In this document: positions 3,207-55,459 of the stretch, piece by piece
Position numbering within the stretch: the first letter of the stretch is position 1
Layout: each line of letters starts with the position of its first letter
IMG/VR virus record: IMGVR_UViG_3300045125_000031
Span: 37,242-101,241 of that record
From: a virus
DNA: 64,000 nt
Reading direction: 5' to 3' (one strand)
Position numbers and translations under genes: made by a program
The notes under the pieces: generated by a model
Databases searched by the model: none
Told to the model about the DNA's origin: nothing
The model's input: only the letters and a program-made list of their open reading frames with translations

Positions 3207-3655
3207 TAAACATCTACCGCCTGATTTTCAGATCTACGAATAATCAATTTATAATATTCTACACTTCCAAACGGACCAGTGAATGGATCCTGTGCTGCTA
3301 TTTCAAATATTGTAGATTTTCCTGCACGAGGACCTGAAGTTTCTAGATATATTTCGTTGCAATTTTTATCACGAATGTTTGTAATGATAACGTTAGTAAT
3401 TGAATTACGAGCCTCTAAACTTGAAATTCTAATATCAGTTTTAGCACGTCCAAGCAATGTTTTATCTTGTGTTATATTTATATTTGGAATAACTTCTTCT
3501 TTAAATGCTGTACCTGCTGGAGCAAAAGAACATGCAATTGTTCTATCTAATATCCAAGTCTTTTTAACTTCTCCATAAATACCTTGCTCAACTATTGGAT
3601 GATAAACATCTGCTTGCATTGGGAATGCGAAGTCTGTAGTTTCGCATATTGTCAT
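3206..3655 (-). CDS. Putative head-closure protein
   Basis: Intact 149-aa ORF overlapping both neighbours; size and position fit a head-closure gene. Confidence 0.5.
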   Translation of the reverse strand: MTICETTDFAFPMQADVYHPIVEQGIYGEVKKTWILDRTIACSFAPAGTAFKEEVIPNINITQDKTLLGRAKTDIRISSLEARNSITNVIITNIRDKNCNEIYLETSGPRAGKSTIFEIAAQDPFTGPFGSVEYYKLIIRRSENQAVDV

Positions 3656-5094: not shown

Positions 5095-6233
5095 TTACTC
5101 TGCTGCAGAGTCTGCCCATGCGATTGCATCTTCTTCTTCCCATTGGATACCGAAGCGAACGAATACAGTATATTCAATTGTATCCTTCTTCGCAACGTAT
5201 TCACGGTTTACGATGATATCACGCTGGAAGCCCCAAACACGGTTCTGTGGGAATGTCAAGTCGACATAACCTGCAGGGTAGTAAGGAACTTCTTGGACAT
5301 CGATACCTAGAACACGAGTTGTACGTGCTCCACCGAATGTCTGACCAGCACCGTCTAAGTAAGACTGTGTGTTGGCGTATGTATTACCATTCTTGCCAAG
5401 TGCTTCAGCGATAGCATCTGAAAGAGTACCGTTATTCTTAACGATACCTGCGAATGCATCTGTACCTACATAGAACTTAAGATTATTCTTAAGTGCACGG
5501 TACTTGCGTGGCATAGCGAGAATGATGTCCTGCATTACTGCAGGTGTCCAAGCATTGTCAGCAACAGTGATTGCTGCTTCATGCGAGTCTCCATTATCCT
5601 TGTGCTTCTTGATGAAGCCAGGCATAATTGAAAGGAAGTGGCGCTGTTGCACCATCACCGTTGATAGCAAGATCTTCAATGTCATTTGCGAATGCATTTG
5701 TCATCAAGCGAACGAGATGATCTTCTAATGCACCACCTTCGACATTGTCTTCTAGTGCTTCAGCAGATACTTCCCAATCTAGACGAATCTTCTTGGTTGT
5801 AAGTTCTACCTTTGTAGAATGTCGCACCAGTGTTTGTATAGTTTCCAACTGCTTGAGCAGCAGCACGAATTACACGCTCACCAACGTTGATCTTCTCAAG
5901 TTCCATGGTGTTTGCTCTCATCGTCACACGACGACCATCTTGAGCGAGAACTGTAGCATCCCAAACGTAGTCAATAAAACGACGTGCCTGTTCAGGGCGT
6001 AGGATTCCGCTTGCAGCATCACCCGAAGGGTTTACGGCATTAGGACCAGTGGTAACACCAAGGTTAGCGTTAGGAATATTTCCTAGTGCGCCACCATCAG
6101 TATAATTGCCAGGGATGTTTGATCCTGCTTCAGAACCTGATGCGAATGCACCTTGTCCCTGATATAAACCTGGTGTTGTTCCACCGAGTTGGCCTGATTC
6201 TCCTGGCTGGTTTTTCTTAATTTCTTCCGACAT
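5095..6233 (-). CDS. Major capsid protein (HK97 fold), frameshifted
   Basis: MSEEIKKNQ...GILRPEQARRFIDYVWDAT...KIRLDWEVSAEALEDNVEG...FANDIEDLAINGDG...EYTVFVRFGIQWEE. It follows the protease gene and precedes a strong terminator. Confidence 0.85.
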
Positions 6234-9671: not shown

Positions 9672-12600
9672 TCATACTGCAGATGAGGTAGACTGTTGCC
9701 ATAAAACGTCTTGGTAGATATTGTACTCACATTCACCAATACCAAAAACCTTATCTGTACCAGTTATTATTTTATTTGTTCCTACGTAACTCTTATATAC
9801 ATCTTCTGGGTCTACACCATAATAACTAATTGAAGACTGTACTAGAACACCGTTCCATAGGAAGAACTCTGGTACCCAATACTCCCAATCTAAGGTCAAA
9901 GGCCCAGATCTCTTTACCTGGAACCAAGGTCGCTTAGAAACCTTTTGAACTTCCTGTAAGTTGGTAGATTGATAATAAGATATATTGTTAAATAACAATG
10001 GTCCGTTTAATTTTATAGATCCAAATACTCCAGAAATATCAAGAAGGTTGAAGAAAAAGAAATACCAAGGAACGCCCACTGTTTAATGGTTAGGACTGGG
10101 TCCTTAACAATCTTGCCATTGAGATAAAATGCTATTCCATTTTCTATTCTTCCAGTTAATGCATTAACTCCGTAGATCTTTCCTCTTCGTCCAGTTTGAT
10201 CATTTGCAACTATATAAAATCTTAATGTATGAATTTTTGCTTCGTGATTTCAAATATTTGTTGAGGCGCATATGGGAAGTAGTCTTCATCAAATCTAACT
10301 GCAAGTTGCATAGCCATAATCTTATCGAAGTCTGAAGTTTGATTTTCATTTATTGGAATCAGCAAACCTCTATTGATTAAAGGATCTTGCTTACCTCTAA
10401 TTTGAATACCACTTGTTCTTGTCATATATAAATATGGCGATGTATTTTTATAAATACTGTAAGGATTTTTTCCTTTGTAGTTATAATAAATGCCAGATTT
10501 TTTATACGGATACATCTTTACATAAGGACTTGTTCCTATAGGGTTGCTATTATTATTAAAAGCCTGAGAACAATATTCTAGTTTCTTAAGTTTAACTTTT
10601 GTTTCTTAAAATATTTTTTACTTTAAATTCTAGGTGAGTAACCAAAGAAAAGTTCATTAAAGTCTACGTTAGAGGGAGGATAAATAATCATATTATCTAT
10701 AACTTCGTACTTACTACTTACCCAGTTGTTTCCTGGTTCTACAGTTCCTTCTTTTGCTGCTGGTTCAATATGTGTAAAGAAAGAACTGCTTTGAGTTGCT
10801 CCTGCCTTAGTGTATTGAAAACTTACAAAAGATCTTACAAGAGATTCACTAGTGTCATATTTATATGTTCTGGTTACATTATATTGTAAATCTTCATAAT
10901 CTCGATATCCAGTAAACAAAAAATTATCCAAAGAGTCGTATGTTCTTTTTTTAGGATAATTAAACTTATTATAAAGTTCTGCATAACTCCATTCTGTTGG
11001 GTCTGTTTCTATTTCAAAAAACTTAGATGGTGCTGGATAGTTTATGTTAAACTGCAAGAAGTCTAGGTCATATACCCTGTCTCCTTCTGCATCATCAACA
11101 AATTGTGCATAATATGTTAGTGGTTGATAATCTTCCCAATATCCAACTGTATCTATATCAAGTTGATATTCATCAAAATATCGTGAAGCAACTAATGTAT
11201 AACTAGCAGTATGATCTAATATTTTATCAAAAGCATTAATCCAGCAGTACCGCCATCCAAAATATAATCCCAGAGTTGTTGATTGTACAGCCCACCGTCC
11301 AAAGTAATAGAATGTATATAATCTTCAATTGTGTCATAATCTGATGGAAGTCCATCTGCACCAAATGCTGGTGCAATTAAAGAATGATTCCTGGCATTTG
11401 AAAGTCCAACCTTATAAATATTCCCATCAAACCATGAAGCAAAATTTTCATCATTTCCAATGTAAAGTTTGCACTGTGAAATATTTCCAAGGATCGCTGC
11501 TACCTCTCCTCCATACCATCTAATTAAATTTTCAATATGGAATCCAGCATAAAACTTTTCACCAGTTATTATTTCTATACTTTCATGCTCAATTTCTGTA
11601 GGTAGATTATCTCCAAACTTTTACAACATATGTAATCTTTTTTGCATCTTGATAAAGATATATGAAAATAATTTGATTAGGATCTATAACTTTAAATAAA
11701 GTCATAGGCTGCTCAACACCATTAATATACTTGCAGATCCAGTTTTCTTGAAATACACCGTAGATACTTTTAACTTCTTGTGCTAAGAAATTTAAATTAT
11801 TAAAATATAGTTGGGCACAGTAGTCAGAGTTTGGCCTTACCTTAAAATATTCATCTCCTAATTCTGAAGGTAACTGAGAGTTTATGGATAGCCAGTCGTT
11901 ATAATATAAACTACTATTTGCTCCTTGATAATTAATTAAAAACTCTGAAGGTTATAGTCTGGCGTAGAAAGCATATTATTTTCATAATTTAAATTATCAT
12001 TTATTCCTTGATTCCAATTTCCTATATCTGGATAAGAATAGTTATTTGAATAGTCAGCAAATGCATAATCAATAAGCAAAGACTGTCCACTATATGCTGT
12101 ATTTATATTATCTGGTGCTTGAACACCCTGTCCAAAAACTAGTCTTCTTTGGCTACAATATTAGAAACTTTATATGGGTATATCCCCACACAATCTATTT
12201 CTATTGGTGACACATCTTCGTATGACCAGAACCCAAGCCATTCTTTTGTAGAGTTAAACTCTAAATCAGCAGTTTTATATGATAAAGACAATACCTCTTC
12301 GCCATTTATATAAAGTTTTGAAGAGTTGTCTAAATATAAAATATGAACAAGCATTGGTCTTGTCCACTCCCAATGTAATGTGATGCTGACTTATTACCTA
12401 TCTTTAAAACTAAAAATGGACCATCTACATATAAACCGCTGTCATTTACTAAACTTCCAAATATCTTTTTAGGTTCTGTAGCATTACAATTTATTCTTAG
12501 CCACATTTCAACTGTATATGTTCTATACTTTCCATTATCATTTAAAAATCCTTCAGATGGAAGAATTAAAGATGGTTTGCCATCGTTTGGAGTTATAACT

Positions 12601-16675: not shown

Positions 16676-17345
16676 TTACATATACTTATTGTTAAATATA
16701 TGACTTACCTCCAAGTGATTTATATTCATATGTTTTGGCAATGAGGCCACCCACCTAATTGTTTCAGCCATGTCGTTAGCAGTAAGGGCATTATCTTTTT
16801 TCTATTTGTGTGTCAATTGTCCCTGGACATATTTCTGTTATCTTTATTCCATATTCAGGAAATTCCATACGCATTGTATCTATTAACGCCATTTGATCCT
16901 CGTTTGGCATTACTATAATTGCCTCCGCCTCTAAATGGAACTTTTCCACATAAAGATGTTATAAAGATAATTGTTGCAGACTCTGATTTTTTCATAGATG
17001 GAGCAAATAACTGAGACAAGTACATTGGCCCAGAAACATTAATATCATATGCTATTCTAAAATTTTCCATAGTTTCATTAATAATATGTGTTGGTCCAGA
17101 ACCTCCGCCAGCATTATTAACTAATAAGTCTAATGTTATGTTTTTATATTTTTCAAAAAAAGTATTTAATTTCATTCTCTTTTGTTATATCTAATTTATA
17201 AATTTCTACCATTATCAGATAATAATCCAGACATTTTATCAACATCTCTCGAAACAGCAATAACCTTATATCCGTTTTCAGATAAAAGTTTAACGGTTGC
17301 ATAACCTACACCTTTACTTGCACCAGTAACGATGGCTGTTTTCAC
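16676..17345 (-). CDS. Short-chain dehydrogenase/reductase (frameshifted)
   Basis: TAIVTGASKGVG, LLVNNAGG and YSNAK (YxxxK) motifs. Confidence 0.85.
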
Positions 17346-44137: not shown

Positions 44138-44944
44138 TTATGCTAGTGAAATTGATTGTGAAGAAGATAACTGCTGCAATTCTGTATCAACGTTTGGGTT
44201 GATTGAAGCCTTTGCACCAGCAAGTAATTCTTCGATATGTTGGCAAACCACTGCAAACTCTTCTTCGAAAATCTTTTGAGATCTTCCAAGTCCCATTCCA
44301 GCAGTAGGTTGGTTTTCCTTTAGTGTTGCTTCGATATCATAGTTAAGAGTTGTGCACTGATAGTGTTTTGCAACATAACCATCCTTGTCAACTAAATACT
44401 TTTCAAAGTTACCGCCCATCCAGTCACCATTGTCAAAACCTAGGTTAAGCCAATGTGAGTAATAGTCTTGAGACTCTGTTGGTGTGTTTTCAGCAATATT
44501 TTTTGCCTTAAATTGTCTTTGATGATCTTGTATTGTTAGATATAGATCATGTGGAGGAAGGTTTTCTTTTCCTAATCCATTGATACCAGGAGTTTCGCTA
44601 ACCTTGTCATGTGGGACAGATCCTACCATTTCAGAAAAACCAAATGTTGTTCCATAAACATCTTTTCCATATGCCTGTGAGTCAGCACCACATGTAATAC
44701 CTTCTGACCACTTACCCTTTGTAATTCCAGGACCACAGTAATCATTTGTTGGGATAGCAATTACTTGGAATCCTTGATCACCATATTTGTCCTGAAGCAT
44801 TTGTAAAACTTCCATTTGATTTGCGTTACCGCAGCCAACTGTTGTGTTAGCGATTAGGGTTACTTTACCCTTATATTGATTTAGAAACCCAGGAGTACCT
44901 TCTGCTGAATTTAAGTCAATGTCGTATATAGATTTTAGTGTCAT
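44138..44944 (-). CDS. Glutathione peroxidase family (Cys-GPx) protein
   Basis: SIYDI, YKGKVTLIANTTVGCG, LQDKYGDQGFQVIAIPTNDY and NFEKYLVDKDG motifs. Confidence 0.85.
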   Translation of the reverse strand: MTLKSIYDIDLNSAEGTPGFLNQYKGKVTLIANTTVGCGNANQMEVLQMLQDKYGDQGFQVIAIPTNDYCGPGITKGKWSEGITCGADSQAYGKDVYGTTFGFSEMVGSVPHDKVSETPGINGLGKENLPPHDLYLTIQDHQRQFKAKNIAENTPTESQDYYSHWLNLGFDNGDWMGGNFEKYLVDKDGYVAKHYQCTTLNYDIEATLKENQPTAGMGLGRSQKIFEEEFAVVCQHIEELLAGAKASINPNVDTELQQLSSSQSISLA

Positions 44945-44965
44945 TTATGACCCCCCTCATTTTTA

Positions 44966-45085
44966 TTAAGATTCTTGTACATTTACTTCAGGCTGTGCTT
45001 CTGCCGAAGTATCTGGCTTTGATCTATGAGGATCTGTACATGTGCAGCCAGCGCAGCACTTCTGTTCTAATGATAATTCTGTCAT
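44966..45085 (-). CDS. 39-aa Cys-containing peptide
   Basis: MTELSLEQKCCAGCTCTDPHRSKP...; upstream TATAAT. Confidence 0.45.
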   Translation of the reverse strand: MTELSLEQKCCAGCTCTDPHRSKPDTSAEAQPEVNVQES

Positions 45086-45112
45086 GATCGTATTATATCT
45101 CCTTATTTTGAT

Positions 45113-45292
45113 TTAGGAGCATTCAGTACAACACTCCTCTTTGAATAGTTTGAGTGCCAAACCATCATTTTCGGGTCTGCCTAAGTCTTCCCAGAATTTC
45201 TCTCTGCTCATGGCATCAGTTTCTACTATCTTGCCTGATTCAAAGTTTGCCTCATTATCCCAGGCGTTTTCTAGATTATCTAAGATTCCCAT
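45113..45292 (-). CDS. 59-aa hypothetical protein
   Basis: MGILDNLENAWD...KEECCTECS*; leaderless extended -10. Confidence 0.5.
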   Translation of the reverse strand: MGILDNLENAWDNEANFESGKIVETDAMSREKFWEDLGRPENDGLALKLFKEECCTECS

Positions 45293-45448
45293 GCTATTTA
45301 TTATACACTAAATCTGAAAAATTTTTTAAATTCCGTTTTCAGGAAAATCTGAATATTTTGCTAAAGTGTATGATACGGAAAATAAAAAGAATAATAACAA
45401 AATAATAGTGAGCACATTTTTGCCCACGATCTTTTTGTTACATTGAGT

Positions 45449-46099
45449 TTATTCTAACTCATGCCTTGGCTTCTTGCCTACTATCCACCCATTGTGTATT
45501 CCTACAAGGGGTGCGTCAATACATACAGCAACCCCTCCGTCAATTGTGTTGGAAAGAAACCGATAAACTTATCTACCGCTTGCTTGCTATAAAACGGGAT
45601 AGTCTTGCTCTCACCCGTTACTGTTGTTAGTTTTACTTGTATCATTGTTATTTTCTCCTAATTCTATTCTATCATTTATTTTGCCGTAATGTGAGCGGTC
45701 ATAGTTAGCAATAGTGCCTCCACTCAATAGGTGAGCCTTTCTCCTTAGTTGCTCCTCGCTATACCCCGCCACTATAACACGCACTCGCAAGGTTCGATAG
45801 CGTAATCTTCGTTATCGCCATAAAAAATAATTCCTCTGCCTGAGCAGGTATCGCAGTCTATAATTTGTAGTGAGTTTATCATTTGATAACCTTCTTCTTT
45901 TTTTATCTAATAATTCTATTCTATACTATGGGACTGACAAAAAGAGGGTCTATTTGCCAATGTCTGATGTGACTTAGGTCACGCTCCAAAGATGAAGCAT
46001 AGGGTAATCGCTAAGCCTACGCCTATAAAGGCTCCAATAGGTCCCGCTACATCTGCGTATGTGTCTAACCAGTCGATGATTGCTGTAAATGGATTCATT
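45449..46099 (-). other. Leftward small early genes (3-4 ORFs)
   Basis: Hand-read ORFs MNPFTAIIDW..., MINSLQIIDCDTCSG... and MIQVKLTTVTG..., each with an RBS. Confidence 0.5.
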
Positions 46100-46342
46100 T
46101 TGTATCCCTTTCGTTTAGTAGTTATACTTTAACTATCTAATACTGGAAGTATAACAGATAGGACTGACAAAATCAACTCTCAGCACGGCGTGTCGTATGT
46201 GATTTAGCCCACATTGCCTAGGAAAAAGTTATCCACAGGTCAGACCATTCATGTGTGGATAACTTATGTGACCTTTATCACAAAAATAGTTTTCCGACAC
46301 GCCCGAAAAACAGGCAAAAATGTCAGACCCCTGTGTTAGACT
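45918..46342. promoter_or_regulatory. Divergent early promoter region with DnaA, CRP-like, GACAC and TGTCAG-N10-TANNNT elements
   Basis: Gene strand switches here. Two leftward and one rightward promoter, two perfect DnaA boxes and three TGTGA-N6-TCACA-like sites. Confidence 0.75.
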
Positions 46343-48542
46343 TACAGAGTAAGATAAACAAAAGAAAGGTGGTCTAAAATGACTACACTAACAAATAACA
46401 ATGTGCCGAGAGCACAACCCTATGAAATCTGCTATCTCAGAAATCGGAGATGAGCAATTTACTTTCTGTCAAGATTGTGAAAATAACATTGAGCGTTGGT
46501 ATGACGATACTGACCCTGAGCGTCTACCTATGTGGACAGATTGGAAAGTGTCTAAATGATAACACAATACATTGACCAAAACGAGTTTTATCTTATCAAA
46601 GATGAACAGCGTTTCTGTTGTGGCGAAAGCCAATTCCGCTATGTGTGTAAAGCGCATGGTGAGGCAATGGGTTGCTACTATTGCGAGTTTAACTATGATG
46701 AGAATTGCGAGGAACAACACTAATGATAACTCTTACACTTACCTCCTATAATGGCAATACTAAGAAAATGCCTTTCTATACAGAAAAGCAAGTGCGTAGT
46801 TTTATTTCTGCGCTACCCTCACACCTTAACAAAACAACTTCGCTAAAAGTAGAGTGTGACCTATTAGCAATTAGCGGAACAATTAGAGGAGAAAACTAAT
46901 GATAACTAACTATGAAATGACACAAGAGATAAAGTCTCTTGCTACTAAGCACTATGGTGACAATGACCTTGCATGGATGTGGGGATGTGCTCAAGCACTA
47001 CTTACCGCAACACAATTAGAGTTAATTCTTGGAATACTAAAAGATAAGGAGGTTCAGTAATGCAAAAGTTTATTTATTCTATTGCCGTTGAGGTAATTGC
47101 TGAGGATCAAGATGAAGCAACTTGGCGTATCTATAATACAAATCTAAGCGAACTAAAAACAGATTGCTTTGAGATTGAAATTGAGGAAATTGACTAATGA
47201 AAACACTTCAAGAAAAATTAGACGAAGTTGCAAAAGAATTAGAGCCAATACTTTGGGATCTACTTGATGAAATTGAAAAATAAAAATAAATAAAAAGTTT
47301 TTTGCAAAATAAAATTGCAAAAAATTCCTAGGCAATTTTCCTAGCGTGTCGTCCACAGGCTGTGGATAACTAATGTGTTTAAGGTCACACTTTTATTTCC
47401 CCGAAATACGGCGTGTCGATTTGACTTTTTGAGATTTTTGTGTTAAACTATCCATAGTTAAAAAATAAAGAAAGGATAACTAAAAATGGACTATTTAGAC
47501 TATTTAGACGAAATCTACGAGGAATTAGTAGATGAATTCGGTCATGAAATCGAATCAAATTGTATCCATGAGTGATACAAATCACACGCCCTGAGCGTCT
47601 CATTATTTGAGAATACTCGTGGGTAACTTGAAAAAATAACAAAAAAATGAAATAATAGAATTATTAGAAACTAAGAAAGGTGGCAACTATGTCAGCCAAT
47701 TTATACACTATCGAAAACCTACTCGTAGGAAAAATCTATCGCTCAAAAATCTTTGACGGGTGAAATCGTTTCAGCAGAGCCACACCCTGAAGCCGTATGG
47801 TATGACGGCGCAGAGGCTTATCGTGTAGAGGTAAGAAATGAAAATGGCGGTTATACCTATCGCTCAGTAGCAGTAAAGGTTGGTGACTAATGAAACTACA
47901 TGAATTTCAAGAATTAGTAAAGTCGCAACGCCAAGCGCAACAATTGACAAACTTAGAGAAAATCGCTAAAATTGTAGAAACAACAAAAGAAAAGGAAATT
48001 AACTAATGACTACATACACAGACTACCCATTCAATGCTCAAGGAATAAATTTTATTTCACGAGTACATACAGACTCACCATTCGCACGACAGATTGCTGA
48101 TTTGCCAGCAGGCGTATTTGAAACAATGAACATTCAAGCAGTTTCAGATTTAATGAATTTATCAACTTTCACACTTGATGAAATTAAATCAGAATTGGAC
48201 CGAGTAAATGAGGGCGGAACTCATGCGTTTATTTTGTTAGGAGAAAATAACTAATGATGACACGAAAAGACTATGTCCAAACTTCAAACATTCTAAAAGG
48301 ATTTAGCGAGGAAATTCATCCCGCAGTCTTTGAGGATTTAGTAGAGGAATTCTCTCAATACTTTCAAGCAGATAACGAGCGATTTGATAAAGCAAAATTC
48401 GAAAAAGGCTTGCGGTGTTGATGAGTTAGGATTGATAGACGCATGAACAGATTTTTAACTTCCCTTGTTCAATTATTTTTGTGGCTTCCAATTTTATTTA
48501 TAATTTATTCAGAAATAAAATCAAGAAAACAAAACTAAAAAA

Positions 48543-48568
48543 ATCCTGAGCATGATCTAAAACTGCTC
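48543..48568 (+). ncRNA. H-type pseudoknot motif copy 1
   Basis: ATC-CT-GAGCA-T-GAT-CTAAAAC-TGCTC. Confidence 0.65.
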
Positions 48569-48727
48569 AAATTTTTCCTAGGCCGTTTTCCACAAGGTCA
48601 GACTAAGTTATCCACAGGTCATTTAAGATGTGATCAAAAACACACCCAGATTTTACGGCGTGTCGTTTTGATTTTGTCAGTACAAAATGATAGACTTACG
48701 GAGTAAGAATAAAGAAAGGAAACTCAA

Positions 48728-49226
48728 ATGGGTTTAGACATGTATCTTAGTGCTAAGAAGCACTTTGCCAAGATTAATTGGCAAGCATTACAGGCTAATG
48801 ATGAACTATCTTATAATTCACCTGAAGCCGTTTTCCGTCAATTTAATGATTTAATGGAATTGACACAATTATCCTAATGTTGCAACAGACATCTATGGAG
48901 CAACAGTAGAAGTCACTTGTGCTTATTGGCGCAAGGCTAATCAAATTCATGCTTGGTTTGTAAGAGAAATACAAAAGGGTAATGATAACTGCGGTGAATA
49001 CTATGTATCACAAGACCAACTAAAGCAATTGCGTGACCTATGCCAAAAGGCATTGGATAATCGTGACCCTAATCTATTGCCACCACAAGAAGGATTTTTC
49101 TTTGGTGGAACAGACATTGACGAATGGTATTGGCAAGACCTAAAGAATACTATTGCCCAATTGGACAGGATTTTTGCCCTGCCTCAATTGTCCGATTTGT
49201 CCTTTTCCTACAGTTCTTCATGGTAG
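48728..49226 (+). CDS. Conserved phage protein (MGLDMYL/YWRKAN family), frameshifted
   Basis: MGLDMYL, YWRKANQIHAWFV, LLPPQEGFFFG and YSSSW motifs. Confidence 0.7.
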
Positions 49227-50567
49227 GGAGCGTGTCGGGTTGAAAATGTCAGCCCGACATGATAGGATTTATTTATAAAGAAAGGAAATAATATGAATAA
49301 GAAAAAAGCACTTGAAACTATTGCTAATTGTAAATTATGTAGTGGTATTGGCTATGAAGGTTGGGCGCATGGCGAGGATTTTGATATTGAGTGGTGTGAT
49401 TGTAACCCTGAACAACTAACACCAGAATTAGGATATACCTATCCTGAAAGAGATACTTGTATCGGTTGTAATGAAAATGGAGTATCGTGGGACGAACTCT
49501 ATTGCTACACTTGCTATCTTGCTAATAATGCTGAGATAGATTATACTCAGATTGACCAATTATTTATAACACAGGAGGCTAACTAATGGGAAGCAATATG
49601 GCAACAGAAATGGCAGATGGTACTCTAAGCGATTTAGGTATTAACTTAACTATTGAACAACAGATAGGGATACACCTATCGTCTAATCACTACCCGCCCG
49701 TACCCGCTATCATGATACCTGCTTGTATTGAGGCTATCGATGCCGTTAATGACGCAGGGCTGTGGGATTTAGATATTCAGATGCCTGAAGGCGTATCTTA
49801 TAAGGGTTTGACTACTGCCCCAGCATGGGCTATTATTGAACAACACCACCTAAATGCTTGGATTATCGAAAGAGAGGAATACTAAGATGGAATACTTATA
49901 CTCAGTAACTTGTACCTATGACGGAGAGGCTACACCTCGTTGGATTGGTAGATTTAGCGATTGTCTATCTGCCGTTGAAAGTTATCAAAAGTTTGTTGAT
50001 TGGGGAACTGCCGTAGAATACTCAACAATTAACTTATCAGAACCTAATGGCAAAATGCACACTAAGGTATTTAATAAAAATGGAAATGTAAGTATGCGTT
50101 AAATGTCTGATACAATGTTGAATATGGAAGACTTCACTGCTGTAGATATTCTCAATGCCGACCAGTTAGAAGTAGGAGATCTAATTGGTATCGGTGGAGA
50201 GATTGTAAAGGTGCTTGCAATTTCACCACTTCACTATGGATTTAATCTTGCTATAGAAAATAATTTTGGCGAAAAAGATTTTGTTGATGTAAGTGAAGAT
50301 GATAATTTTAAATTGTATATAGAAAACTTCTAAAAACCGGCCTAGGCAATTCGGACATATTCGGACATTTGCATTTTTGTTATTTTTATGATAAGATTAT
50401 TACATGATGAAAAAAACGGCTGAGGAATTACGCAGACTTATGGAATTACGCAGGTCTAATGCTGCAACTCCATTAAGGAACAAAAAAGCCTACTCCCGTA
50501 AAGTTAAACACAAAAAATTTGACTTATCAAAATAAAAATGTTATAATAAAAATAAAGAAAGGACCCC

Positions 50568-51287
50568 ATGAAACTAAAACGTAGCATGGATAGGAAGGTA
50601 ACTAATGCTGTCTCACCCAACGGAAAAACCCCAACAATTGCCAACACTTTTGGATTGCCTGCTGGTAAGGCTTTCTCGTGCCCTGGTGCCACTAACACTT
50701 GTGAGAGCGTTTGCTACGCAGGAAAACTTGAAAGAGTCTACAAAGGCGTAAAGGCTGTCTTACTTCATAACTGGGAATTACTAAAAGACGCTGACCATGA
50801 CACTATGGAAGCATTGCTCATGGACATGATTGCAGACTTTAGAAAAGATTGTGAAAAGAAAGACGCTCCTATGCTATTCCGTATCCACTGGGACGGTGAT
50901 TTCTTTAGTGATGACTATGCATTTGCATGGAAGACACGTTATTCTTAATAATCCTGATGTAAAGTTCTGGGTCTATACTCGTGTAGCCTCTGCTGCAGAC
51001 ATACTCAAGGGAATTGATAATCTTAGCTTATACTATTCTACGGATAAAGACAACAAAGAGATTGCTATTAGTCTAAATAAGGAAAAGGGTATTCGTTTGG
51101 CATACCTTGCAGATACCTTCGCAATTGGGCAGGCTGATCTAAAGGCAATGATAGGCAAGGTAGGGGCTAAGTGCCCTGAGAATAAAAAGGCTATTCCCTA
51201 ATTGACAAAGAGGGGTCTGCTTGTGTAAAATGTAATTTATGTGTTAGCAACAAGGCTGACATAGTGTTTAGCGCAAAGAAAAAGTGA
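50568..51287 (+). CDS. Gene product 88-like Fe-S protein (frameshifted)
   Basis: FGLPAG..CPGAT..C..VCYA, FRIHWDGDF, FWVYTR and terminal C..C..C motifs. Confidence 0.7.
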
Positions 51288-51468
51288 TAAATGAAAATCC
51301 TATTACTAATCTTGTGGGCTATCTTTATTGGGATAATTTTCTACCCACCCCTAAAGTGACCCAAATCACACGAGAGAAATCTCAAAATGTGAGAAAATGT
51401 CAAAAATAACTTGACACGGCAAGAAAAAATGTCATAATAGTAGTATAACCAACAACAAAGGAGAAAAA

Positions 51469-51636
51469 ATGTCAGTAGCAACCGCAACTTACAAGGTAGG
51501 CGACCTATACACTTCACAGAAGTCAAAGGTCACAGGCACAATTACAGAAATCAAGCCAAATCAAGACGGCTCATCTGTTCGTGTCAAACTTGATGTAAAT
51601 GGCACACCACGCTGGACAACTTGGACAGCAAAGTAA
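51469..51636 (+). CDS. 55-aa beta-barrel (SH3-like) protein
   Basis: MSVATATYKVGDLYTSQKSKVTGTI...; paralog of 52255-52422. Confidence 0.6.
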   Translation: MSVATATYKVGDLYTSQKSKVTGTITEIKPNQDGSSVRVKLDVNGTPRWTTWTAK

Positions 51637-51652
51637 TTCTCAATACGAGAAA

Positions 51653-51681
51653 AGTCCTGAGTATGACTACTAAAACTGCTC
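51653..51681 (+). ncRNA. H-type pseudoknot motif copy 2
   Basis: AGTC-CT-GAGTA-T-GACT-ACTAAAAC-TGCTC. Confidence 0.7.
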
Positions 51682-51746
51682 ACTTGACTTTCTAACTAAA
51701 AAATGTTAGACTTGACATAACCCAAACCCACTAAGAAAGGAAACAA

Positions 51747-52166
51747 ATGGCAAGAGGAAAAGCGATAAATGTAAAAATCGCTACAACTAAGGTTATCAAA
51801 GCCTTAGAAACTAAATTAGCAGAAATCAACAAAGATTTCGCAAATCAAGAAGCAAACGAGGCTAAGTATGATAAGGCTCGTAAAGCATGGGCTAAAGAAG
51901 TAGCAAAACTCGCAGTTGCTCAAATCGCAAAGGCTGAGAACTTCTCTGCTAATAAGCGATACAACAATGAAATCAACATTGACTTCAACATACCTGCTGG
52001 TCTTATTGACCTACCTGCTGAACCTGAGCGTGAGCATAAGACAATGAACGATTGGCAGTATCGTGAAATGGTTGAGGAAATTGAGAACGCAATTCGTATT
52101 CTCAAAATGACAGATGAGGAAGTAGTTTCTACTTCTACTTACAACGCTATCGCAAGATACCTATAA
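51747..52166 (+). CDS. Hypothetical coiled-coil protein
   Basis: Intact 139-aa ORF with strong RBS and its own promoter. Confidence 0.7.
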   Translation: MARGKAINVKIATTKVIKALETKLAEINKDFANQEANEAKYDKARKAWAKEVAKLAVAQIAKAENFSANKRYNNEINIDFNIPAGLIDLPAEPEREHKTMNDWQYREMVEEIENAIRILKMTDEEVVSTSTYNAIARYL

Positions 52167-52254
52167 TCAAGATGGCGGGTGCGTGGGCTATTGACAACAC
52201 CCGCCAAACTTGGTAAAATAAATACAAGACCCAATAAATAGAAAGGCAAAACAA

Positions 52255-52422
52255 ATGACATTAGGCGGATACACTTACCAAATCGGTGATTTATTCACAA
52301 CAAGCAAAACAGGAGTTACAGGTCGCATTGAAAAGTTTGTTCCACAAACTCGTAATGTAACTAAGGTTATGCTTCGTTTAGCAAATAACCAAACTCGTTT
52401 CGCAATGGTAAAGACTTACTAA
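52255..52422 (+). CDS. 55-aa beta-barrel (SH3-like) protein
   Basis: MTLGGYTYQIGDLFTTSKTGVTGRI...; upstream TTGACA-17-TAAAAT promoter. Confidence 0.6.
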   Translation: MTLGGYTYQIGDLFTTSKTGVTGRIEKFVPQTRNVTKVMLRLANNQTRFAMVKTY

Positions 52423-52434
52423 GAAAGGAATAAC

Positions 52435-52638
52435 ATGCTAAAAAAGTTATTATTGGAATACAGGCACTATTTGTTTTTTTGGTTAGTTGCTGGTGTTGCA
52501 GGTGCAAACTGCGAAGCAGAACAATATCAGGGTGCTTGTGAAGCAGGAACTGGAATTGGTTTGTTTTTAATAATGATGTTATGGGCAATTGTAGATATTA
52601 TTCTATTGCTTATTTGGTTCATTACTCGTAAGAAATAA
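52435..52638 (+). CDS. Small two-TM membrane protein
   Basis: Two hydrophobic helices flanking a Cys-pair loop. Confidence 0.55.
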   Translation: MLKKLLLEYRHYLFFWLVAGVAGANCEAEQYQGACEAGTGIGLFLIMMLWAIVDIILLLIWFITRKK

Positions 52639-52707
52639 CTTTCTTTCCTGATAAGCCCCGCTAAAAAATGAAGTGGCGAAAGTCCTTGCGGGTATTCCTG
52701 GAAAGAT

Positions 52708-52734
52708 CATCCTGAGCATGATGTAAAACTGCTC
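52708..52734 (+). ncRNA. H-type pseudoknot motif copy 3
   Basis: CATC-CT-GAGCA-T-GATG-TAAAAC-TGCTC. Confidence 0.7.
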
Positions 52735-53554
52735 CACAAAAATCGCCTAGGCGGTGTGATTTAAATCATAGTCCACTATGTGAGATGATTTACGTACTTG
52801 ATTTGATTTTCCCCCATAAAAATGCTATGATTATATTATCTTAAGAAAGGATAATTAAATGATTAGTACCGCAATAGCCCTACAGAATGTAACAAAAGAA
52901 GCAGTTCACGACGAAATAATAATGAATATGGCTCGTGCCATTTATCACACTAAAGACGGCATGTCTCCAGATGAGTTTGCCCAAGCCTTATATATGTATT
53001 CAGGAACGTTGGCTGCTTTAACAACTACATTAGTAACAAGTGTATTATTGACAGAAGCAGAAATAGATGATATGGTTAATACAATTAAAGAAATGGAAAC
53101 AATGGGAAAGGATGTTGAATAATGGAAACTCCATTTAATGCAACAATTAAAGAATATGTAGCAACAGAAGACTTTCTAAAGTCAGAAATTAAAAAGAAGG
53201 ATGAGCGAATCAAGCAACTTGAGGAGCATACTTCTGTAGTAACTCAGCGTTCATACACTGAATCTGCAGAGCGCAATCGCATGCGTAATGAAATGCAGGA
53301 ATGGACCCTGGAGCAATTGGATGAAGATTCAATCACTGAATCACAGGCAGAAGAAATTGCAAGCATTTGTGGTTTTGAATTAGCCAAGGAATTTGAGGCT
53401 GAGGTAACCGTCCAGTACTCAATTACAATTAATGCACGTAATGAAGAGCAGGCACAGAATGCAATCTATGATATTGATTTTGATTCAGTCTCATACAACG
53501 GCGATGCAATTACCTATTTGTCAGGCAGTGTCGACAGAATAGAAATTTAAAAAT

Positions 53555-53656
53555 TTGCAGGGTTCATGAAAGGCCCTGCAATGTATACGGATCCTATCTT
53601 TCATCCTTTCTTAAATAGGACCGTAAGGGACCTGAGCACGTCCATGTAAACTGCTT
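53555..53656 (+). ncRNA. Structured RNA: two kissing hairpins plus pseudoknot copy 4
   Basis: Stems TTGCAGGG/CCCTGCAA and TACGG-TCCTAT/ATAGGA-CCGTA with complementary loops ATGAAAG/CTTTCAT, then GGAC-CT-GAGCA-C-GTCC-ATGTAAAC-TGCTT. Confidence 0.65.
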
Positions 53657-53816
53657 TATAAATTTCCTAGGCACCTAGCCCGCAAAAATTCAAAATGTCA
53701 AGTATTTAAGATGTGTTTTACGTCACGTCCAATTTATCCCCTTTTACTAAGCCTATTTGACTTTTGTCGGTTGTTTATGCTAAGATTGTTAAAACACTTA
53801 CAGAAAGGACAAAATA

Positions 53817-54833
53817 ATGGCGCATGAATTAGAAACGCAAAATGGCGTTGCTTCTTTCGCATCATTCCGTGAGCCTGCTTGGCATGGTCTTGGCACAGTA
53901 TTCACGGAAGAAAAAACAACAGCAGAAATGTTATCTGCTGCTAACCTAAACAATTGGAATGTTCGTCTTGAGGACGTAAATGTTCCATCTCACTTATCAT
54001 CAGATAAGAATTATCAATACGTTATCCGTACTAACCCTACAGATAATACACAGACCGACATTCTTGGTGTTGTCGGTGAGCGTTACCATGTTTTACAGAA
54101 TGAAGATTTATTCTCATTCGGTGATAACATTCTTGACGGCGGAGGTCGTTGGGAAACGGCTGGCTCTATTCGTGGAGGTCGTGTCGTATTCGGTTCTCTT
54201 GCTCTTGAGCGTGAGACAATTCTTGACCCTAATGGTGTTGCCGATAAGGTAAAAACTTATTTGCTTATCAACACATCACATGATGGTTCTATCGCTATTC
54301 AAGCAAGCATAACACCTGTTCGTGTTGTGTGCGCTAATACTCTTAACCTTGCTTTAGGTTCTAAGCGTGGAAAAAATGCTATCAAGCAGACATTCAAGAT
54401 ACGCCACACGCAGACCGCAAGTGGTAAGGTACAAGTTGCTCGTGAGACTCTTGGTCTTGCTAATAAGTACATGGACGCTTTTGATGTTATGGCTAAGGCT
54501 ATGATTGAGAAAGAAATCACAGCGCAACAGTTCAATGACATTGTGCTTGCTGCTTATCCAAAGCCTGATGAAGAAAAAAAGGGCGCACTTACTCGTTGGA
54601 CTAATAAGGTTGATGTTATCAATGACATCTACACAGGTGAGTTCAATGGAATGATTGCGGGTAACGCATGGGGTGCTTTCAATGCACTAACTGAACGCCT
54701 TGACTGGCATCGTTCTGCTCGTGGTGGAAATACTGAGGCAATGCTTGCTGCTGCTTCTGGTTTTGACCCATCAATTACAGCAGAAAAAAATCGTTTGCTA
54801 AGTATTGTAAAAAATACTTTAGCGATTGCATAA
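53817..54833 (+). CDS. DUF932/DUF945 phage-plasmid protein (TIGR03299-like)
   Basis: PAWHGLG, YHVLQN, WETAGSIRGG, NTSHDGS, PVRVVCANT and IRHT motifs. Confidence 0.85.
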   Translation: MAHELETQNGVASFASFREPAWHGLGTVFTEEKTTAEMLSAANLNNWNVRLEDVNVPSHLSSDKNYQYVIRTNPTDNTQTDILGVVGERYHVLQNEDLFSFGDNILDGGGRWETAGSIRGGRVVFGSLALERETILDPNGVADKVKTYLLINTSHDGSIAIQASITPVRVVCANTLNLALGSKRGKNAIKQTFKIRHTQTASGKVQVARETLGLANKYMDAFDVMAKAMIEKEITAQQFNDIVLAAYPKPDEEKKGALTRWTNKVDVINDIYTGEFNGMIAGNAWGAFNALTERLDWHRSARGGNTEAMLAAASGFDPSITAEKNRLLSIVKNTLAIA

Positions 54834-54842
54834 GTAATCGCA

Positions 54843-54869
54843 ACTCCTGAACATGAGTATAAACTGTTC
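54843..54869 (+). ncRNA. H-type pseudoknot motif copy 5
   Basis: ACTC-CT-GAACA-T-GAGT-ATAAAC-TGTTC followed by a T tract. Confidence 0.7.
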
Positions 54870-55459
54870 ACTTTTTTATTTTGCAATTGCAGATCATAAA
54901 ATAAAAATAAAAAATTTGCTAGATAAACCAAAATCCACACAAAACGGACATTGTATTTTTGATTTTATTTTATTACGTAGCACTTGATTTTTTTGCTGGA
55001 TTGTGGGACAATTAATACATGACCCTAAAAGTAGAAATATATGAAATGGAATATTCCGTATCCCCTGGTGGTGTAGATTGCTGGGAGGTTAATATACAAG
55101 GCTATGGATCAAGTAGATGTATATCTGACTTTGATACTGCTGGTCAGGCTCTTAATTGGGTAGTTGACCAATACCCTGACAAGATGATAGAATTGACAGT
55201 AACATCATTACCTGCCTATGAAAAGGAATATGCATGAGACAAACCTTTAAACCCTACACAATTGATGAATTAGTTACAACTATCTATGAGGACAATTTAG
55301 ATCATTTTGAGTTCATGGAGAACATGAATGGTGGAGATTGTGACTGTGCTTTACACAATACTATGAATACTATCATTAGGTATTGGGGAGAGTAGGACTT
55401 GACATACCGTTGCATTTTTGCTAAAATTTAATTACGAACCCACAAGAAAGGACCCCTGA

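Follow-up and report, generated by a model that had tools for sequence, protein, structure and literature searches.

Coremin elements (xrRNA_C), described by Dilweg, Olsthoorn et al. (PMC6546385, PMC10520033, PMC10321173), occur in eukaryotic RNA viruses, among them BNYVV, the cucumoviruses and many more, where they stall Xrn1 and scanning ribosomes and promote frameshifting. The 20-nt BNYVV motif reads GUCCGAAGACGUUAAACUAC (PMC10520033). The loop of its first hairpin (lp1 of hp1) follows the rule YGAD (4 nt) or YGNNAD (6 nt), with G at position 2; shifting this G abolishes Xrn1 resistance, and an 8-nt loop ending in C (GRV) is resistant (PMC10520033). Coremin halts a 5'-3' exoribonuclease where hp1 has its base. 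The spacer after hp1 is (G)UUAAACUAC, in which C17 and U18 are essential, and a second hairpin, hp2, is reported to be absolutely required for Xrn1 resistance. In the Watson-Crick coremin (xrRNA_WCC), which exists in engineered and natural forms, the loop pairs with the spacer through a stem 2 of 3 bp (PMC10321173). Phages are not mentioned in the coremin papers.

Our results place five short elements of a phage genome in a family of compact H-type RNA pseudoknots, large and as yet uncatalogued, whose members lie between the genes on phage transcripts. The window, that is, the whole stretch of 64,000 nucleotides analysed here, carries all five on the + strand, each ~27-30 nt long, at the coordinates noted in the initial annotation (Table 1). 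The stem 1 pairing proposed there for every copy is borne out, and so are the stem 2 exchange of GAGCA/UGCUC for GAACA/UGUUC, which is that of copy 5, and the G-U wobbles, which lie in copies 2 and 4. The core pattern CTGARYAYG-N3-9-TAAA has six matches in the window against 0.22 expected, a number that none of 100 shuffles reached; the sixth match, at 16843 on the - strand, comes without the remaining motif. Over the whole 101-kb record, the full pattern and a covariance model retrieve precisely these five copies (33.7-44.5 bits), and the next best match of the model scores 13.4 bits.

Table 1. The five pseudoknots of the window with their parts and immediate surroundings (S, stem; L, loop).
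Feature	Position	Strand	Covariance model (bits)	S1	L1	S2	L2	L3	Upstream ORF (distance past its stop codon)	3' side
Pseudoknot copy 1	48543..48569	+	44.3	AUC/GAU (48543-45 with 48554-56), 3 pairs only	C48546	UGAGCA/UGCUCA (48547-52 with 48564-69)		CUAAAAC	unlisted 31-codon ORF, 48443-48538 (4 nt)	UUUUU beginning 2 nt 3' of the element
Pseudoknot copy 2	51653..51682	+	43.9	AGUC/GACU		UGAGUA/UGCUCA, with U-G wobble		ACUAAAAC	51469-51636 (16 nt)	3' end adjoins -35 of TTGACT-17-TAGACT (51684-51712)
Pseudoknot copy 3	52708..52734	+	44.5	CAUC/GAUG		GAGCA/UGCUC		UAAAAC	52435-52638 (69 nt)	promoter-like site 52803-52831
Pseudoknot copy 4	53628..53656	+	33.7	GGAC/GUCC		GAGCA/UGCUU, with G-U wobble	C	AUGUAAAC	53122-53550 (77 nt)	promoter-like site 53757-53786, then DUF932 gene 53817-54833
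Pseudoknot copy 5	54843..54870	+	41.5	ACUC/GAGU		UGAACA/UGUUCA (compensatory A-U pair)		AUAAAC	DUF932 gene 53817-54833 (9 nt)	CUUUUUUAUUUU directly 3', resembling a terminator tail

The copies of the window are spaced 0.9-3.1 kb apart, with genes in between. As claimed initially, every one of them follows a stop codon; a consensus-like promoter between the element and the next gene, however, is present for only three of the five. The arrangement of copy 2 and its promoter is kept in three relatives (L087, L072 and L107), and in the slot of relatives that is equivalent to copy 5 a tRNA-Asp gene lies 5-9 nt downstream of the element. In the window phage and in its relatives, early regions hold 5-7 copies per ~10 kb.

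The element consists of a stem 1 of 4-5 bp, free in sequence and closed by an invariant C-G pair, a loop 1 consisting of C, a stem 2 of the form UGAGCA/UGCUCA, a loop 2 of 1 nt and a loop 3 of the form NNAAAC. The family consensus is cguC-CUGAGCAU-Gacg-UUAAAC-UGCUCA, and that of the covariance model is cguCCUGAGCAUGacgUUAAACUGCUCA. Covariation was assessed on 138 distinct copies among the matches listed. In these, stem 1 is paired at 95.6%, with three pairs each showing all four Watson-Crick types; the C8-G17 pair is invariant (138/138), the pair next to it is U-A or A-U in 118 copies, and the third pair is most commonly G-C, which gives the consensus GUC/GAC. Stem 2, of 5-6 bp, is paired at 94.7%; at its pair 13-34, GC (117 copies) alternates with AU (17 copies), and copies lying outside the search pattern show compensatory changes at three further pairs. 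The covariation score is 0.464 as compared to 0.160 after shuffling, none of 500 shuffles reaches it, and sliding the partners brings the score to 0.077 or less. In addition, the U-G and G-U wobbles of stem 2 would be A-C mismatches if read on the other strand. Because both stems covary over 138 copies from unrelated phages, it is strongly supported that the element folds as an H-type pseudoknot in the sense-strand RNA and is not a DNA operator, as the initial annotation had it.

The constraints on sequence extend beyond the pairs. The AAAC of loop 3 and the U that follows are at least 90% conserved, and the junction residues (the C8-G17 pair, C9 of loop 1 and C31) are invariant. The hairpin loop spans 8 nt (C-U-G-A-R-Y-A-Y), its last base being C in ~20% of the copies. 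The linkers are less rigid than first described: loop 3 ranges from 6 to 8 nt, rather than being a fixed TAAAC preceded by 0-3 nt, and across the family its AAAC alone is constant, with any base accepted in loop 2. The helices contribute little energy by themselves (+1.6 to -5.2 kcal/mol for stem 1, -2.0 to -5.4 kcal/mol for stem 2). Weak helices together with strict sequence constraints fit a fold that would depend on tertiary contacts. On the 3' side, the first 9 nt are G-poor (4-9% G), and the folding of the first 26 nt is weaker than that of random sequence.

Scanning IMG/VR with the exact pattern gave matches on at least 118 contigs, and the covariance model confirmed copies in cultured phages whose hosts are Staphylococcus, Lactobacillus, Mycobacterium, Arthrobacter, Synechococcus, Roseobacter and Vibrio, as well as in a crAss-like phage and in one 5-kb member of the Microviridae. 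The carriers confirmed by the model infect Firmicutes, Actinobacteria, Cyanobacteria, Alpha- and Gammaproteobacteria and Bacteroidota; altogether, the phages with the element represent at least six phyla. The covariance model and viral database search suggested in the initial annotation have in this way brought out a large family in which both stems covary strongly. In line with its statement that no named family fits, Rfam 15 holds no family that matches the element, whether the cut-off is the gathering threshold or E<=10, with 7.5 kb and 56 nt as queries, and our literature search found no paper describing this phage pseudoknot family. A range of carriers that includes one of the Microviridae, with a genome of 5 kb, makes a dedicated phage protein partner unlikely and, spanning at least six phyla, argues for a partner-independent or universal mechanism.

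Throughout the family, the copies are intergenic, point in the same direction as the flanking genes and usually begin just past a stop codon. A median of 22 nt separates them from the upstream stop, with spacings of 4-77 nt in the window and of 3 to >100 nt elsewhere, and the next start most often follows after 19-30 nt. The downstream gene most often encodes a head scaffolding protein (~14 loci, 4 PHROG families), others being DUF932, PhoH, primase and helicase genes, and nine copies have a tRNA gene 4-15 nt to their 3' side. Upstream, Hsp20, DUF932, SSB, RNR or minor head protein genes are frequent. The boundaries marked by the element are those adjoining genes for abundantly needed products. 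A Shine-Dalgarno sequence is located 5-20 nt downstream of many copies, and some copies lie within 5' leaders of scaffold and capsid genes. The location at early gene 3' ends proposed at the outset holds for the window, but elsewhere the element also occupies scaffold and capsid leaders and positions just ahead of tRNAs.

On these grounds we propose, as the best though still tentative reading, that the element works unaided as a mechanical roadblock or end-cap and so keeps RNA decay in check where one cistron borders on another. The fold would act alone, without any phage-encoded partner, and would stop enzymes that travel along the RNA between cistrons, namely exoribonucleases, 5'-end-dependent scanning nucleases and perhaps ribosomes; the message would in this way be divided into pieces of independent stability, one for each flanked gene cassette. 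In the window phage, given the location of the copies at early-cassette ends ahead of the next promoter, the five elements would cap the 3' ends of early-cassette messages or insulate read-through transcripts. We infer both the resistance to nucleases or ribosomes and the direction, 5' or 3', in which protection would run: the window copies, upstream of promoters, suggest a 3' role, and copies before scaffold genes look like 5' leaders, so that the contexts are ambiguous in this respect. To our knowledge, bacteria have no Xrn1; of 10 genomes with the motif, only 6 have an RNase J that scores above the cut-off of its family, and one carrier is a Vibrio phage. Therefore, no single 5'-3' exonuclease explains the element. 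Among the functions offered by the initial annotation, an exonuclease block or an unusual terminator constitutes the best-supported class.

Termination itself deserves attention in this regard. A U-tract (at least six U in eight positions) starts within 3 nt of the element in 18% of the copies as compared to 2.5% of random positions, a 7-fold enrichment suggesting that some of the copies take part in termination; for copy 5, which is followed by CUUUUUUAUUUU, and possibly for copy 1, the downstream U-run may also help to end transcription. The pseudoknot could even replace the GC-rich hairpin altogether and halt RNA polymerase at the cassette end, either by itself or assisted by a U-tract or by a universal factor (NusA, for example). 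The window copies do lie past genes and ahead of promoter-like sites, on a + strand that is almost devoid of canonical terminators between 46 and 57 kb, and some copies, as in locus L064, close units before opposite-strand genes. We nevertheless regard this as less likely than the roadblock: the stems are weak, 82% of the copies have no U-tract, and many are placed where efficient termination would do harm, be it 19-30 nt ahead of a co-directional gene that has its own RBS, within a late operon (portal, minor head, PK, scaffold, capsid) or 4-15 nt from the tRNA that follows. Moreover, locus L058 has a canonical hairpin and U-run immediately upstream of the element. Intergenic and tRNA-adjacent slots are also where phage ribozymes occur, and the copy of locus L155 lies between two Pistol ribozymes. 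With ~15 highly conserved positions beside a helix of free sequence, as is typical of small ribozymes, and a very wide host range, the element could be a very small self-cleaving ribozyme, or a universal endonuclease site, that cuts polycistronic phage RNA into units. However, no Rfam ribozyme family matches it by the same method that detects Pistol in L155, 144 kb from 13 other loci gave zero ribozymes, and the two stems plus an A-rich minor-groove loop account for nearly all conserved bases, which makes processing quite improbable. Moreover, we know of no natural self-cleaving class near 27-30 nt, all of them being far larger.

The architecture itself recalls a ligand-binding RNA. In the preQ1-I riboswitch (RF00522), among the smallest natural H-type pseudoknots, an A-rich loop 3 ending AAAC-U leads into stem 2 as it does here; the invariant C8-G17, C9 and C31 could form a pocket, and the many copies shortly upstream of a Shine-Dalgarno sequence would suit an aptamer, riboswitch-like or bound by a universal protein (e.g., a ribosomal protein), through which the adjacent gene is regulated at the level of translation or stability. 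Yet the flanking genes (scaffold, Hsp20, DUF932, SSB, RNR, primase, tRNAs) share no common pathway, and many copies, including those of the window, are far from start codons or upstream of promoters. The preQ1-I riboswitch adjoins queuosine/7-deazaguanine genes, an association not seen here, and keeps its Shine-Dalgarno sequence in stem 2, whereas that sequence is never within the phage fold, in which the 3' strand of stem 2 is UGCUC. With a loop 2 of 1 nt, the element has no obvious pocket, and neither RF00522 nor any other Rfam riboswitch matched (gathering threshold or E<=10; 7.5 kb and 56 nt). A regulatory aptamer is thus very improbable. Size and pseudoknot class, in turn, are similar to those of ToxI-type antitoxins, and early regions, both in the window phage and in its relatives, contain several copies, as might be expected of a decoy or antidote RNA against host defence that mimics type III antitoxin pseudoknots or another nuclease substrate. 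This suggestion, which the initial annotation had also raised, is hardly credible: ToxI-like antitoxins are tandem repeats beside a toxin gene, whereas the phage copies are single and dispersed between genes, with no tandem arrays in relatives. Defence systems are, besides, sporadic and specific, and the same core recurs in late structural operons and in phages of at least six host phyla, one 5-kb member of the Microviridae included. We are aware of no sequence likeness between ToxI and the element.

As for other known systems, the roadblock reading finds a parallel of role only in T7-type RNase III sites and REP or terminator hairpins, repeated structured elements between phage or bacterial cistrons that set message ends and stability; these lack conserved sequence, being either long duplexes or plain GC-rich hairpins, in contrast to a sequence-constrained pseudoknot. 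The -1 frameshift pseudoknots of the luteovirus type (e.g., BWYV, 28 nt) share with the element a compact H-type fold of less than 30 nt, a loop 1 C, a junction of only one nucleotide and an A-rich loop 3 that could form a minor-groove triplex with stem 1; the phage stem 2, however, is longer and conserved in sequence. Neither a slippery heptamer nor an overlapping -1 frame was found at the element, which comes after stop codons by a variable distance, and the gene that follows has its own RBS and start, at odds with a frameshift stimulator.

It is coremin that, judged by sequence and fold, the phage element closely resembles, and from this likeness we infer nuclease resistance. Coremin is carried by eukaryotic RNA viruses and the phage element by DNA phages of bacteria. 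The lp1 rule is broken by the phage loop CUGAGCAY, with its 8 nt, its G at position 3 and, in ~20% of the copies, its final C, although it agrees with the rule in the C at its start and the A next to its end; the loop interaction is non-canonical or of 3 bp in coremin and a canonical stem 2 of 5-6 bp in the phage element. A coremin-like hp2 starting within 3 nt downstream is not enriched (22% of copies vs 25% of random positions). In other respects the two agree. Apart from the longer loop, which results in a 6-bp Watson-Crick stem 2, the phage consensus matches the 20-nt BNYVV motif: the GUC/GAC hairpin consensus, the C-G closing pair and the C that opens the loop are common to both, as is the spacer UUAAACU (UUAAAC-U in the phage consensus), and the spacer ends differ, AC in coremin and GCUC in the phage element, because the phage bases pair with the longer loop. 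The antiparallel Watson-Crick stem 2 and 1-nt loop 1 of xrRNA_WCC recur here, with stem 2 extended. Like coremin, the element has a short C-G-closed hairpin whose lower pairs covary, the same size, H-type topology and 1-nt loop 1, a purine-rich loop that pairs 3' of an A-rich spacer, and strict sequence needs despite weak helices; both reside in UTRs or intergenic regions, at times in several copies.

The five pseudoknots of about 27 nt proposed in the initial annotation were all recovered at the positions it had listed, on the plus strand, on reading 48400-55000 of the window. In the window the core pattern CTGARYAYG-N3-9-TAAA has six matches where 0.22 would be expected, a count reached by none of 100 shuffles; the sixth match, at 16843 on the minus strand, is without the 3' half of the motif. 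Across the 101-kb record, a scan with the full pattern matches these five copies only, all forward, and a covariance model scores them at 33.7-44.5 bits, with the next best genome site at 13.4 bits. An alignment of the window copies that includes 40-130 nt of flank shows no conservation beyond the core of about 27 nt. The consensus-like promoters lying between the element and the next gene (copies 2, 3 and 4) read TTGACT-17-TAGACT and similar, and a sequence scan of the plus strand around the copies found almost no canonical terminators. Four relatives of the window phage (L041, L050, L085 and L087) carry 5-7 copies per ~10 kb.

Positions and gene order of the pseudoknot (PK) in the window and in named phages, and of conserved stretches in Saccharimonadia genomes
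Feature	Coordinates	Strand	Context
Window copy 1	48543-48569	+	upstream stop 4 nt away
Window copy 2	51653-51682	+	upstream stop 16 nt away; consensus-like promoter before next gene
Window copy 3	52708-52734	+	upstream stop 69 nt away; consensus-like promoter before next gene
Window copy 4	53628-53656	+	upstream stop 77 nt away; consensus-like promoter before next gene
Window copy 5	54843-54870	+	upstream stop 9 nt away; CUUUUUUAUUUU directly 3'
Staphylococcus phages Henu2, SA13, B122			minor head / head morphogenesis, PK, scaffold, capsid
Lactobacillus phage AQ113			PK, scaffold, capsid
Mycobacterium phage Labelle			3' of gp85, 5' of tRNA-Gln
Arthrobacter phage Molivia			SSB, PK, tRNA-Gly; <=3 nt from each
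Cyanophage S-RIM4			3' of gp084
Roseobacter phage SIO1			3' of RNR gene
crAss-like phage cr7_1			5' of primase gene
Vibrio phage D456			flanking small ORFs annotated on opposite strand
A Microviridae (5 kb)			VP5, PK, small ORF, major capsid
Saccharimonadia conserved stretch	L140:4915-5100		contains uaagaggcuuccucccucugucu ... gacagagaggcag
Saccharimonadia conserved stretch	L233:495-680		contains uaagaggcuuccucccucugucu ... gacagagaggcag
Saccharimonadia conserved stretch	L240:5856-6040		contains uaagaggcuuccucccucugucu ... gacagagaggcag

Several other features accompany the copies in the early region. An unlisted 31-codon ORF (48443-48538) ends 4 nt 5' of copy 1 and encodes the hydrophobic peptide MNRFLTSLVQLFLWLPILFIIYSEIKSRKQN. 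Each of the genes at 48728-49226 and 50568-51201 apparently falls into two frames that overlap or adjoin (49 aa + 65 aa and 126 aa + 123 aa, respectively), for which frameshift, sequencing error or recoding could be the cause; the second of them matches, at the DNA level, a hypothetical protein of cluster-A mycobacteriophages. The seven CCTAGG sites of the 64-kb window, a total not above chance (8 expected), are clustered within 9.3 kb (44439-53671). Three of them lie 7-11 nt 3' of a pseudoknot in the common context AAAWUUYCCUAGGC, and at the position of such sites relatives carry AAAUUUUCGACC. Two hairpins directly 5' of copy 4 (53555-53625) correspond to the kissing-loop candidate of the initial annotation.

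The element belongs to a widespread phage RNA family. An exact-pattern scan of IMG/VR matched at least 118 contigs; the pattern sets no condition on the bases around it, and at least three extra complementary pairs flank the invariant C...G in ~125 of the 147 matches listed (chance, ~5%). All 138 distinct matches among those listed were aligned without selection for pairing, and pairs were counted on the pseudoknot ....((((.[[[[[[.))))...........]]]]]].... In this alignment, stem 1 pairs in 95.6% and stem 2 in 94.7% of cases. Each of the three variable pairs of stem 1 shows all four Watson-Crick types (for example CG 39, AU 37, UA 17, GC 9), and pair 13-34 of stem 2 is GC in 117 copies, AU in 17, GU in three and mismatched in one. 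The covariation score, 0.464, compares with 0.160 for shuffled alignments (0/500 as high) and with at most 0.077 for slid partners. A covariance model, into which stem 1 was entered as pairs and stem 2 as sequence, added ~36 copies from the fetched loci that the exact pattern misses, and these carry further compensatory changes: G11-C36 to A-U in six of them, A12-U35 to G-C and C14-G33 to U-A. With these copies included, loop 2 may be any base and loop 3 reads NNAAAC. U-G and G-U wobbles are frequent and would become A-C mismatches if the opposite strand were read, so the fold belongs to the sense RNA. The wobbles and the variable spacer speak against a DNA operator. Thus the earlier view of an RNA fold rather than such an operator is borne out by covariation of both stems, and the proposed model building and viral search extended it to new copies.

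In viral contigs ~92% of the pattern matches are genuine, and carriers range from Microviridae to crAss-like and jumbo phages; in bacterial genomes the matches are mostly chance, with stem 1 pairing in ~31%, which are spread over many phyla. Copies in named phages were found by BLAST with two stem-1 variants and then confirmed by the model. The Staphylococcus records matched by BLAST number 85, including phiNM4, phiETA, phiMR11, 55 and 88; phage 80alpha has no copy, and that of E. coli phage ST32, which has a stem-1 mismatch, is doubtful. Some carrier loci hold other RNA features. In L155, a contig binned with a Coxiellaceae MAG, one pseudoknot (3226-3260) lies between two Pistol ribozymes (2821-2883 and 5460-5530; 68 and 61 bits) and a second lies elsewhere. 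A 98-kb viral contig with three copies (L034) encodes a permuted tmRNA at 11778-12019 (RF04321, 66.8 bits). In three Saccharimonadia genomes, a stretch of ~180 nt 3' of the pseudoknot appears structured and is strongly conserved from species to species, and it matches no Rfam family.

Copies are intergenic and co-directional with neighbouring genes. The distance from the upstream stop has a median of 22 nt (mode, 8-13 nt to the CC), and that to the next start is most commonly 19-30 nt; where spacers are long, the element usually hugs the upstream stop and, in a minority, the downstream RBS. A same-strand tRNA gene (Asp, Gly, Gln, Trp, Arg) lies 4-15 nt downstream of nine copies, and other copies lie directly 3' of tRNA-like sequence. 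PHROG tallies of 125 downstream ORFs show head scaffolding proteins (four families, ~14 loci) and phrog_1221/DUF932 (7); among 120 upstream ORFs, Hsp20 (12) and DUF932 (10) occur together with minor head and head-morphogenesis proteins, Gp2.5-type SSB and RNR. The 9 nt 3' of the knot are G-poor (4-9% G), and family-wide the 26 nt downstream fold more weakly, and the 26 nt upstream more strongly, than random sequence. In Staphylococcus phage B122 (NC_054979; L263:706-742), a BPROM-predicted promoter is annotated over the pseudoknot in the gap between minor head and scaffold genes; a 'promoter' feature also underlies the match in B166, and in Vibrio phage D456 and E. coli phage ST32 the element falls inside tiny 'hypothetical protein' ORFs. 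Current annotations therefore mislabel the element.

The family is apparently undescribed so far. A search of the window, a 7.5-kb and a 56-nt stretch against Rfam 15, at the gathering threshold and at E<=10, returned only a tRNA and noise, in agreement with the initial failure to match a named family. Full-text literature searches for the motif sequence returned primers only, topic searches found no description of the element, the Patience paper does not mention it, and nothing recognisable as it is named in a phage catalogue of 10,006 csRNAs (PMC10690425). Candidate identities, the DNA operator included, were rejected by inspection against consensus motifs. Against a hammerhead core, the CUGA-containing strand is helical and covaries; a sigma-54 promoter leaves the stem-1 covariation unexplained; and against a NusB/E boxA (UGCUCUUUA), the UGCUC of the element forms pairs and can change to UGUUC or UGCUU. 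The sequence likewise spoke against a K-turn and the 11-nt tetraloop receptor, and the likenesses to a tRNA D-stem and to 16S rRNA around GGAGCAUGUGGUUUAAUUC are short matches at chance level.

Each stem alone is weak (stem 1, +1.6 to -5.2; stem 2, -2.0 to -5.4 kcal/mol), and ~15 positions are nearly fixed, even in the 5-kb Microviridae. The hosts of the carriers are not known to have a specialised RNA-binding factor in common. Weak stems and near-fixed positions across such hosts would be expected of a fold held by tertiary contacts, in which the A-rich loop 3 would lie in the minor groove of the sequence-free stem 1 and, with the loop 1 C, hold the structure; such a fold could act by itself. 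We tentatively propose that the element is a mechanical roadblock or end-cap at cistron boundaries, where it would limit the processive decay of RNA and possibly the movement of ribosomes. This reading is the best supported because of the weak stems and fixed positions, the likeness to coremin, an Xrn1-resistant motif of BNYVV and other RNA viruses, and the boundary positions. Copies upstream of the window promoters and after SSB, Hsp20 and RNR genes look like 3' caps, as do those immediately 5' of tRNAs, where cleavage by RNase P would put the knot at a 3' terminus; copies before scaffold and capsid genes look like 5' protectors that may shield an abundant downstream message. A dependence on RNase J finds no clear support: of 10 bacterial genomes with the motif, 6 score above the threshold of TIGR00649 (RNase J), model matches per class are few and do not differ significantly (Gammaproteobacteria 0/150, Bacilli 1/150, Clostridia 3/150), and a good copy occurs in a Vibrio phage. 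In Proteobacteria, the scanning activity of RNase E could play the corresponding part.

The U-tract found 3' of the knot in 18% of copies against 2.5% of random positions favours a pseudoknot-based terminator, but copies inside operons contradict it, and we consider it unlikely. Still less probable is a processing signal or ribozyme; apart from the two Pistol ribozymes of L155, a search of 13 other loci (144 kb) found none. An aptamer seems improbable: the preQ1-I aptamer has the same architecture, but the phage element shows neither the riboswitch gene association nor a match to the Rfam model. A defence decoy we regard as very improbable.

These knots might constitute a class of RNA resistant to exoribonucleases or ribosomes, the first in bacteriophages, a broader proposal that we consider rather doubtful: a coremin-type knot common, by descent or convergence, to DNA phages of many bacterial phyla and to plant and fungal RNA viruses, acting as a universal, partner-free roadblock that splits polycistronic messages into units of different stability. 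How genes on one long phage transcript come to differ in expression, as in portal versus scaffold and capsid, or abundant early proteins versus their neighbours, is largely unexplained beyond a few model phages, and a portable 30-nt RNA module placed exactly at such boundaries could be a general answer. Nuclease resistance like that of coremin would extend xrRNA biology beyond eukaryotic RNA viruses to bacteria and would give synthetic operons a very small part for insulation or stabilisation. Cultured carriers include the Staphylococcus aureus phietaviruses phiNM4, phiETA and B122, Lactobacillus phage AQ113, and Arthrobacter and Mycobacterium phages. RNA family catalogues should take up the element, because annotation pipelines now label it a promoter or part of small ORFs.

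With regard to known systems, BWYV-type frameshift knots have the architecture of the phage element but require a recoding geometry that it lacks, the spacing from stop to knot being too variable for readthrough or frameshifting. In the BNYVV coremin (GUCCGAAGACGUUAAACUAC), a short hairpin with a loop of the form YGAD/YGNNAD is followed by a conserved spacer and by a second hairpin that is obligatory; the motif halts both Xrn1 and scanning ribosomes and promotes -1 frameshifting, and in 'Watson-Crick coremin' variants the loop is paired with the spacer (PMC10520033, PMC10321173). Phages are not mentioned in these two papers. The phage-family consensus derived from the model, cguCCUGAGCAUGacgUUAAACUGCUCA, differs from coremin in its 8-nt loop, which forms a canonical stem 2 of 5-6 bp, in the G at loop position 3 and in having no second hairpin, which is not enriched after the element. 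Because two of the tests that define coremin came out negative, we do not file the element as a member. Both have in common the GUC/GAC hairpin consensus, the C-G closing pair, the first C of the loop and the UUAAACU spacer, and judging from these sequences the phage element appears to resemble a Watson-Crick coremin in its looks and may do so in its working.
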